In this document: piece after piece, positions 53,994-54,197 of the stretch | How the letters are laid out: each line of letters starts with the position of its first letter | How positions within the stretch are numbered: the first letter of the stretch is position 1 | DNA from: Ostreococcus lucimarinus | Lineage: Eukaryota | Length of the DNA stretch: 64,000 nucleotides | Strand: one strand, 5' to 3' | Assembly: GCA_000092065.1 (NCBI GenBank) | Contig: CP000590.1 | Made by a program: the position numbers and the translations under genes | Notes under the pieces: generated by a model | Databases searched by the model: none | What the model saw: the letters and a program-made list of their open reading frames with translations, nothing else | What the model was told of the DNA's origin: nothing

Positions 53994-54197
53994 ATGTCCG
54001 ACGTCGCGGCGGCGAAGCGCGCGTTCGCGAGCGAACGAGGCCTCGAGCCGTGCGCGAACGACGCGTGTGAGTGCGACGCGTGCGAGTGCGGCGCGCGGTG
54101 CGGGTGCGAGACCGCGGCGCGCGACGCGAAGACGTGCGAGCCGTGCGTCGAGTTCAAGGCGCGAAAACTCGCGGCGACGGCGCGGCGCGCGCGATGA
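53994..54197 (+). CDS. 67-aa Cys-rich (metallothionein-like) small ORF
   Basis: Nine Cys in PCANDACECDACECGARCGCETAARDAKTCEPC and almost all codons G/C-ending. Its TGA overlaps the ATG of the next gene (ATGA at 54194-54197). Confidence 0.45.
   Translation: MSDVAAAKRAFASERGLEPCANDACECDACECGARCGCETAARDAKTCEPCVEFKARKLAATARRAR

Follow-up and report, generated by a model that had tools for sequence, protein, structure and literature searches.

A small eight-cysteine gene abutting an LRR gene in Ostreococcus lucimarinus: a candidate bicistronic locus

A stretch of 64,000 nucleotides (nt) from contig CP000590.1 of Ostreococcus lucimarinus (GenBank assembly GCA_000092065.1), here called the window, contains a 67-codon open reading frame (ORF) that is rich in cysteine and whose stop codon overlaps the start codon of a gene for an LRR protein. 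The original prediction for this ORF (ORF1, plus strand, 53994-54197 including the stop) left three readings side by side: (i) a metallothionein-like or metal-chaperone micro-gene on a bicistronic transcript, (ii) a conserved-peptide upstream ORF (uORF) that controls the LRR gene by termination-reinitiation, and (iii) a chance ORF in GC-rich DNA. The locus thus raises the question of whether ORF1 is a gene in its own right and, if so, how it is expressed with the gene that it touches. Translation, codon composition, syntenic orthologues and family profile matches together indicate that ORF1 is a real protein-coding gene and not a chance ORF. The explanation that we hold to be somewhat better than an even bet is that ORF1 encodes an eight-Cys metal-thiolate micro-protein and forms the first cistron of a bicistronic mRNA, on which the LRR gene would be reached by leaky scanning or reinitiation. 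Already known were ORF1 as a public 'hypothetical protein' and bicistronic expression in the Chlorophyta; new, from the comparisons described here, are the delineation of an eight-Cys family across phyla, the conserved pairing of the small gene with the LRR gene in Ostreococcus-like genomes and a natural series of stop-start spacings.

The small ORF and its conservation in Ostreococcus-like genomes

Translation of 53994-54197 yields a protein of 67 aa (MSDVAAAKRAFASERGLEPCANDACECDACECGARCGCETAARDAKTCEPCVEFKARKLAATARRAR) with nine cysteine residues (positions 20, 25, 27, 30, 32, 36, 38, 48 and 51), as predicted. The TGA stop of ORF1 (54195-54197) lies over the ATG of the LRR gene (54194-54196) to form the tetranucleotide ATGA (54194-54197, plus strand), and 35 nt (53959-53993) separate the ATG of ORF1 from that of a diverging cyclophilin gene; both arrangements stand as first described. 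The remark that the codons of ORF1 end in G or C, as do those of the real genes of this region, is borne out by a G+C content at third codon positions (GC3) of 0.90, compared to 0.66 at codon positions 1 and 2. The LRR, cyclophilin and RecA neighbours are skewed in the same way (GC3 of 0.77-0.79). The length of ORF1 is unremarkable, as 38 ORFs of at least 40 aa are present in the surrounding 4 kb (DNA of ~63% GC). Cysteine makes up 13.4% of ORF1, the highest value among the 121 ATG-initiated ORFs of 50-120 aa in the window (next 8.5%, median 2.7%), and none of the other window ORFs (224 in all) matches its density of nine cysteines within 32 residues. A second copy of the eight-Cys domain is not present in the window.

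Among 5.8 billion proteins searched, ORF1 has three informative homologues, one near-identical and two with 85% and 58% identity, which keep the Cys pattern and whose length differences are all multiples of three; a fourth match (P0004) covers the C-terminal third only. The exact 67-aa sequence is already in the JGI/ENA collections, annotated as 'hypothetical protein'. A GTG-extended version of 74 aa is indexed in the NCBI whole-genome shotgun set MDSX01 and, for marine metagenome contigs (Tara and others), in 214 collection blocks.

Contigs retrieved via the small ORF and via orthologues of the LRR protein share a gene order of cyclophilin (leftward), small ORF, LRR gene and RecA (leftward), usually followed by GCV_T. 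This order is found in L001, L002, L017, L019-L021 and L024, and in O. tauri RCC1115 (L016), for which NCBI annotates a 78-aa gene at the position syntenic to ORF1. Seven lineages were compared: the window, L001, L002, O. tauri (L016), L017, L019-L021 and L024. Identity among them is 88-94% for RecA and 41-52% for the LRR protein; therefore, the lineages represent distinct Ostreococcus-like species. The frame of ORF1 is the sole one of the six that is free of stops in all seven lineages, and its Cys codons switch synonymously between TGC and TGT while the Cys residues persist. Amino-acid identity between lineages is 40-60% for ORF1 versus 39-51% for the LRR protein, and by this measure the small protein is as conserved as its larger neighbour, or more so. 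An antisense ORF of 203 aa (53801-54412) was rejected as a candidate gene, since stops occur in each of the three antisense frames in at least one lineage.

An eight-cysteine family and its predicted metal site

Relatives of ORF1 extend well beyond Ostreococcus. Scored against all 1.84 billion representative proteins, a profile of the window ORF, P0002 and P0003 gave 21 matches at E<=0.001, including P0054 of Thalassiosira pseudonana (E=6e-7), P0048 of Amphidinium (1.9e-10) and P0058 of Kryptoperidinium (3e-5). A second, word-indexed search with a 15-sequence alignment gave 37 matches. Reciprocally, P0001, which is 99% identical to the window ORF and represents its cluster, matches the family profile at 1.3e-17. 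The members are noted in diatoms (T. pseudonana, another Thalassiosira, Cyclotella atomus, C. cryptica and Detonula) and dinoflagellates (Kryptoperidinium foliaceum and Amphidinium massartii, the latter with two domains), and many more reside on unassigned marine contigs. Several members are complete ORFs in MMETSP transcriptomes; thus, the family is transcribed. Most are single-domain proteins of 69-91 aa, near the 67 aa of the window ORF. A stand-alone homologue is found in L022, where the next gene is unrelated and 756 nt away, and the domain is also found at the C-terminus of longer proteins.

Peptide conservation in related genomes, which the original prediction had proposed as a check, is thus evident, and includes eight invariant cysteines. 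The family motif is C-x-N-x2-C-x4-C-x-C-G-x2-C-x-C-x(8-20)-C-[DE]-P-C, preceded by K-x2-F-A, and the window ORF has every invariant column. Across 30 aligned sequences, K8, C20, N22, C25, C30, C32, G33, C36, C38, C48, P50 and C51 do not vary, whereas the ninth cysteine of ORF1, C27, is at a variable position occupied by C, F, Y or H. The K-x2-F-A motif is part of a predicted N-terminal helix (K8 to R15, 54015-54038, plus strand), in which K8 is invariant and A12 nearly so, and the Cys-rich core (C20 to C51, 54051-54146, plus strand) includes all eight invariant cysteines. An anonymous hypothetical protein thereby becomes a member of a definable family that has neither a Pfam entry nor a solved relative. 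The family is common to ecologically dominant marine phytoplankton (Ostreococcus, thalassiosiroid diatoms and dinoflagellates), and the handling of trace metals is central to the physiology of these organisms.

The AlphaFold2 model of the ORF1 product, computed from a shallow alignment, has a mean predicted local distance difference test score (pLDDT) of 87.6 and a predicted template modelling score (pTM) of 0.67. The predicted architecture is an N-terminal helix (residues 3-15), a knot of the eight invariant cysteines (pLDDT of 86-93 across the core) and a C-terminal helix (residues 49-66). The cysteines most likely hold metal ions, as (i) the eight invariant residues are in CxC, Cx2C and Cx3C spacing, (ii) one position alternates among Cys, His and aromatic residues, and (iii) the module is amplified to 3, 4 and 11 tandem copies in certain proteins. 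The site may consist of two Zn(Cys)4 centres or of a small Zn/Cu/Cd-thiolate cluster, and the product may serve as a metallothionein-like buffer, a carrier or a structural zinc module. With its two flanking helices and confident model, the product would seem to be a folded domain and not a metallothionein of the classical, disordered kind.

The likeness to metallothioneins is partial. Similarly to cyanobacterial SmtA/BmtA, plant Ec and fungal Cu-metallothioneins, the family members are small proteins with clustered CxC, Cx2C and Cx3C motifs, have His or aromatic residues in exchange for Cys at one position and form tandem arrays in some species. By contrast, the Cys content is only 13%, and the model predicts two flanking helices and a confident fold, while typical metallothioneins are disordered in the apo form. 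The label 'metallothionein' derives from the UniProt name of the Cyclotella atomus member (KAL3800246.1 / A0ABD3QLA9) and the Cys pattern, and from nothing else; no experimental paper behind the UniProt name was found in the metallothionein literature searched for Ostreococcus and Thalassiosira. A review names a single GenBank 'metallothionein' for Ostreococcus and another for T. pseudonana, and gives no sequences by which to tie these entries to the eight-Cys family.

A further set of homologues carries the eight-Cys domain in 11, 4 or 3 tandem copies (P0045, P0046 and P0063, respectively) as an N-terminal extension of ThiF/MoeB-type (MOCS3/Uba4-like) proteins recognized by the Pfam ThiF model. 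On L026 (4001-5938), the ThiF domain that follows one such array carries on in a downstream exon (6505-7062). The fusions suggest that the domain is functionally tied to the chemistry of sulfur or of the molybdenum cofactor, or to ubiquitin-like activation, a lead and no more. Extended to the locus studied here, this lead would make the eight-Cys module a folded domain, not described before, that handles metal or sulfur in concert with ubiquitin-like/E1-like systems. Two points prompt this proposal, which we regard as distinctly unlikely: the fusion of 3-11 copies to the N-terminus of a ThiF/MoeB-type enzyme in one algal clade, and the pairing of the module, on the proposed Ostreococcus bicistronic mRNA, with a protein of predicted ubiquitin-like N-terminus. 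If true, the ratio of the two products could follow metal or sulfur status via start-codon choice.

Expression of the paired ORFs

An LRR orthologue lies directly downstream of ORF1 in every lineage that has ORF1. The distance from the ORF1 stop to the LRR ATG is -4 nt (the ATGA overlap) in the window and its closest relative L002, 3 nt in L019-L021, 6 nt in L017, 14 nt in O. tauri (L016), 28 nt in L024 and 55 nt in L001; for O. tauri and L001, the LRR start was taken as the ATG ahead of the conserved LRR-protein N-terminus. The check on conservation of the ATGA overlap therefore turned out negative beyond L002: what is conserved is the tight spacing, not the overlap. The relative frame of the two ORFs likewise varies by lineage (+0, +1 or +2), as does the stop codon (TGA or TAA). 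The interval from the ORF1 ATG to the LRR ATG is poor in ATG triplets, with 3 found in six lineages versus 19.1 expected from neighbouring coding sequence, and four of the six have none; the nominal probability of this depletion is overstated because the lineages are related. At -4 to +55 nt, the distance between the ORFs is too short to accommodate a 3' end and a promoter. Based on the conserved tight spacing, ORF1 and the LRR gene are probably on a single mRNA in Ostreococcus-type algae.

In the proposed mechanism, a single mRNA would begin within or close to the 35-nt spacer that is shared with the diverging cyclophilin gene (53959-53993). The spacer has no ATG on the plus strand and is a candidate for a very short 5' leader or a shared promoter region. 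Transcription that starts within it would place the ORF1 AUG very near the cap, and an AUG close to the cap is linked with leakiness (PMC11291117). Part of the ribosomes would translate ORF1 from its AUG, while others would skip this codon and initiate by leaky scanning at the next AUG, which in the window is the LRR start because no other AUG is present between the two. As a secondary route, a ribosome that ends ORF1 at the AUGA overlap could reinitiate on the LRR AUG. Reinitiation of this type may occur, especially at gaps of <=6 nt, but is disfavoured by the length of ORF1 (67 codons).

Bicistronic loci with related features are defined by Iso-Seq in the green algae Chlamydomonas, Chromochloris and Auxenochlorella (Gallaher et al. 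2021, PMC7896298; 2024 preprint, PMC11291117). These loci have a short ORF1, a short inter-ORF distance, few AUGs and, in some cases, stop/start overlaps, and mutation of the ORF1 start context demonstrates that ORF2 is reached by leaky scanning (PMC7896298, PMC11291117). The Ostreococcus pair shares with them a 67-codon ORF1 ahead of a longer colinear ORF2 of 399 codons, a very short gap, an ATG-poor ORF1, a colinearity kept across species and a stop/start overlap, the latter of the type noted in Auxenochlorella. By contrast, the green-algal loci are transcript-defined, whereas the pair described here is known from genome sequence alone, and Ostreococcus served in those studies only as a genome in which to seek orthologues of Chlamydomonas pairs. 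Full-length-transcript proof of bicistrony so far comes mainly from the three genera named, and the Ostreococcus locus provides a conserved candidate for native bicistronic expression in the Mamiellophyceae, with a natural spacing series (-4 to +55 nt) that may be used to tell leaky scanning from reinitiation.

Termination-reinitiation at an overlapping stop and start (AUGA or UAAUG) is the mechanism by which BM2 of influenza B virus and VP2 of caliciviruses are produced. The window and L002 have the AUGA in common with these systems, but the overlap is not conserved, with gaps of 3-55 nt in the other lineages. Green-algal experiments favour leaky scanning instead (PMC11291117).

Several observations weigh against an eight-Cys metal-binding protein translated from a bicistronic mRNA. 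First, a Cys20-to-Arg allele of ORF1 (TGC to CGC, 54051-54053) is common in the population, being carried by ~111 contigs of which one is an NCBI contig of 582 kb (P0007, P0015), and speaks against a metal site because C20 is invariant in the 30-sequence family alignment. Speculatively, C27 might make up for the loss of C20 in this allele. The variants C25R and C30R also occur and are rarer than C20R. Second, known domains and structures provide no anchor: the window ORF has no Pfam match at E<=1, a Pfam scan of 30 family members at E<=10 detects weak SpdB, ZMYND11_CC and NUMOD3 matches only and no metallothionein model, a sequence search of the Protein Data Bank (PDB) with ORF1 returns only Reelin at E=0.66, which is not real, and a PDB search with the family profile returns zero matches. 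Thus, no family member matches a Pfam metallothionein model or a solved structure. Third, the ratio of nonsynonymous to synonymous substitution (dN/dS; Nei-Gojobori, whole ORF), another proposed check, is 0.4-0.9 for ORF1 versus 0.38-0.63 for the LRR gene; the ratio discriminates poorly because dS is lowered by the extreme GC3 bias and the two ends of the peptide evolve fast, and column-wise conservation is therefore relied upon instead. Fourth, features of the scanned interval are not uniform. Two ATGs lie inside ORF1 of O. tauri, and an out-of-frame ATG immediately precedes the LRR ATG of L017. The start context of ORF1 ranges from weak in the window (T at both -3 and +4) to strong in L001 (A at -3, G at +4). 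Position -3 is occupied by T also in L002 and L017, and by C in O. tauri; a consensus start context derived from the first ATGs of long window ORFs was too noisy for use. Fifth, the Ostreococcus-like lineage L015 (1-Mb contig, L015:2912-3001) is without the small ORF at this locus, which was either lost or never present. The position of the LRR ATG of L015, 16-88 nt from the cyclophilin ATG, speaks for the bicistronic unit instead: the LRR gene is thus served by a region shared with cyclophilin, and a transcript that starts there must cross ORF1 in the other lineages.

The bicistronic micro-gene of the original prediction nevertheless emerges as the best supported of its three readings: the real gene, the Cys pattern and the tight spacing count for it, and the missing Pfam metallothionein match against it. 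The strongest rival, unlikely but a serious contender, is that the two ORFs are monocistronic genes, with transcription of the LRR gene starting inside or just after ORF1 and the overlap being a product of extreme genome compaction. The genome is indeed very compact, as illustrated by the head-to-head ATGs of the small gene and cyclophilin; NCBI annotates the small gene and the LRR gene of O. tauri separately, L015 expresses the LRR gene without ORF1, and the small gene is monocistronic outside of green algae, as in L022. Such an arrangement is harder to reconcile with intervals that are too short for a 3' end and promoter, with a tight colinearity that is held even though the LRR proteins are only 41-52% identical, and with the scarcity of ATGs in the interval, which is as expected under ribosome scanning.

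Very unlikely is a purely regulatory uORF, in which the peptide itself is functionless and its translation, ribosome stalling or AUGA termination-reinitiation only sets the output of the LRR protein. As in plant conserved-peptide uORFs, a conserved peptide is encoded directly upstream of the main ORF on the same strand, and in Ostreococcus-like genomes it is always directly 5' of the LRR gene; the AUGA overlap of the window and L002 is compatible with this mode of control, and any translation of ORF1 necessarily cuts scanning to ORF2. Unlike in those uORFs, the family exists apart from any LRR gene: the same domain forms free-standing proteins, including the stand-alone gene of L022, and transcripts in diatoms and dinoflagellates, resides at the C-terminus of longer proteins and is fused in 3-11 tandem copies to ThiF-type enzymes. 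On L027 (34-770), from a GC-rich marine alga, the family member P0052 (71 aa) is followed after 38 nt by an unrelated coiled-coil ORF of 160 aa, a second and different tight tandem pairing of the small gene. The confident globular model also argues for a folded product, ORF1 is longer than typical conserved-peptide uORFs, and its 67 codons are long for efficient reinitiation (cited in PMC11291117).

The last alternative, a chance ORF in GC-rich DNA or an LRR N-terminus split off by an assembly frameshift, read-through, selenocysteine recoding or an intron, is barely credible and, within the reach of sequence comparison, refuted: ORFs as long as this often arise by chance in this DNA, ORF1 abuts the LRR gene and the two ORFs of L017 and L019 share a frame with a TGA between them, but the peptide is found at the same locus in seven lineages and its eight cysteines are conserved across phyla to diatoms and dinoflagellates, the exact sequence is independently assembled in many metagenome contigs (index entries in 214 blocks), the window has no room for an intron, the LRR orthologues align from their own ATG without a Cys-rich extension, and the variation in relative frame and stop codon between lineages led to rejection of all fusion, read-through, frameshift, selenocysteine and intron models.

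Neighbouring genes

ORF2 (54194-55393, plus strand) encodes the 399-aa LRR protein, which carries LRR_8 (Pfam, E=1.9e-19) and LRR_4 repeats. AlphaFold predicts a beta-grasp-like N-terminus of bbabbab topology (residues 1-86, 54194-54451; pLDDT of 82-91), a long helix (residues 101-148) and an LRR solenoid. The ubiquitin-like (UBL) label originally given to this gene gains structural support from the predicted N-terminal fold, but Pfam does not detect a ubiquitin-like domain in this region. In O. tauri RCC1115 (GCA_002158475.1), the NCBI model of the LRR gene begins at L016:3001 (321 aa), while the N-terminus shared by its relatives (METDARVEVLFRGK...) begins at L016:2785. The gene with the conserved N-terminus spans L016:2785-3966 and starts 14 nt past the stop of the small gene; thus, the public O. 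tauri model appears to be truncated at its 5' end. Similarly, the LRR start of L001 is set at 1174, the ATG before the conserved N-terminus, versus 1231 by the gene caller.

The diverging cyclophilin gene (minus strand) begins with the ATG at 53958-53956 and has two exons. Exon 1 (53863-53958; MGASASS...PLGPARE) encodes a peptide that is kept in relatives (MGAxAS...VAYxxPLG), and a GT..AG intron of 126 nt links it in frame to the DTPKVYFD of exon 2 (53026-53736), which encodes the PPIase domain (Pfam Pro_isomerase, E=1.2e-48). The NCBI cyclophilin model of O. tauri begins at the ATG equivalent to that of the window. In all lineages (window, L001, L016, L017 and L019), only 12-53 nt lie between the head-to-head ATGs of cyclophilin and the small gene. 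Diverging ATGs this close imply either extremely short 5' leaders or a head-to-head overlap of transcripts, in which the promoter of each gene would lie within the coding sequence of the other.

An ORF of 297 aa (51879-52772, minus strand) ranks second in the window in Cys density and has a Cys-rich C-terminus (CCWFWCVPCAAAQEHKAMK). It has a weak match to the PLAC8 family (E=0.0015; 19.9 bits, under the 34.4-bit cut-off), and may be a second metal-related gene ~1.2 kb from ORF1. The region at 46000-52000 has a GC content of 0.51-0.53, compared to 0.60-0.71 typical elsewhere in the window, and the metagenome contigs L005 and L009, of the same species, differ in the genes just upstream of the cyclophilin gene; this region may be strain-variable or similar to an outlier chromosome.

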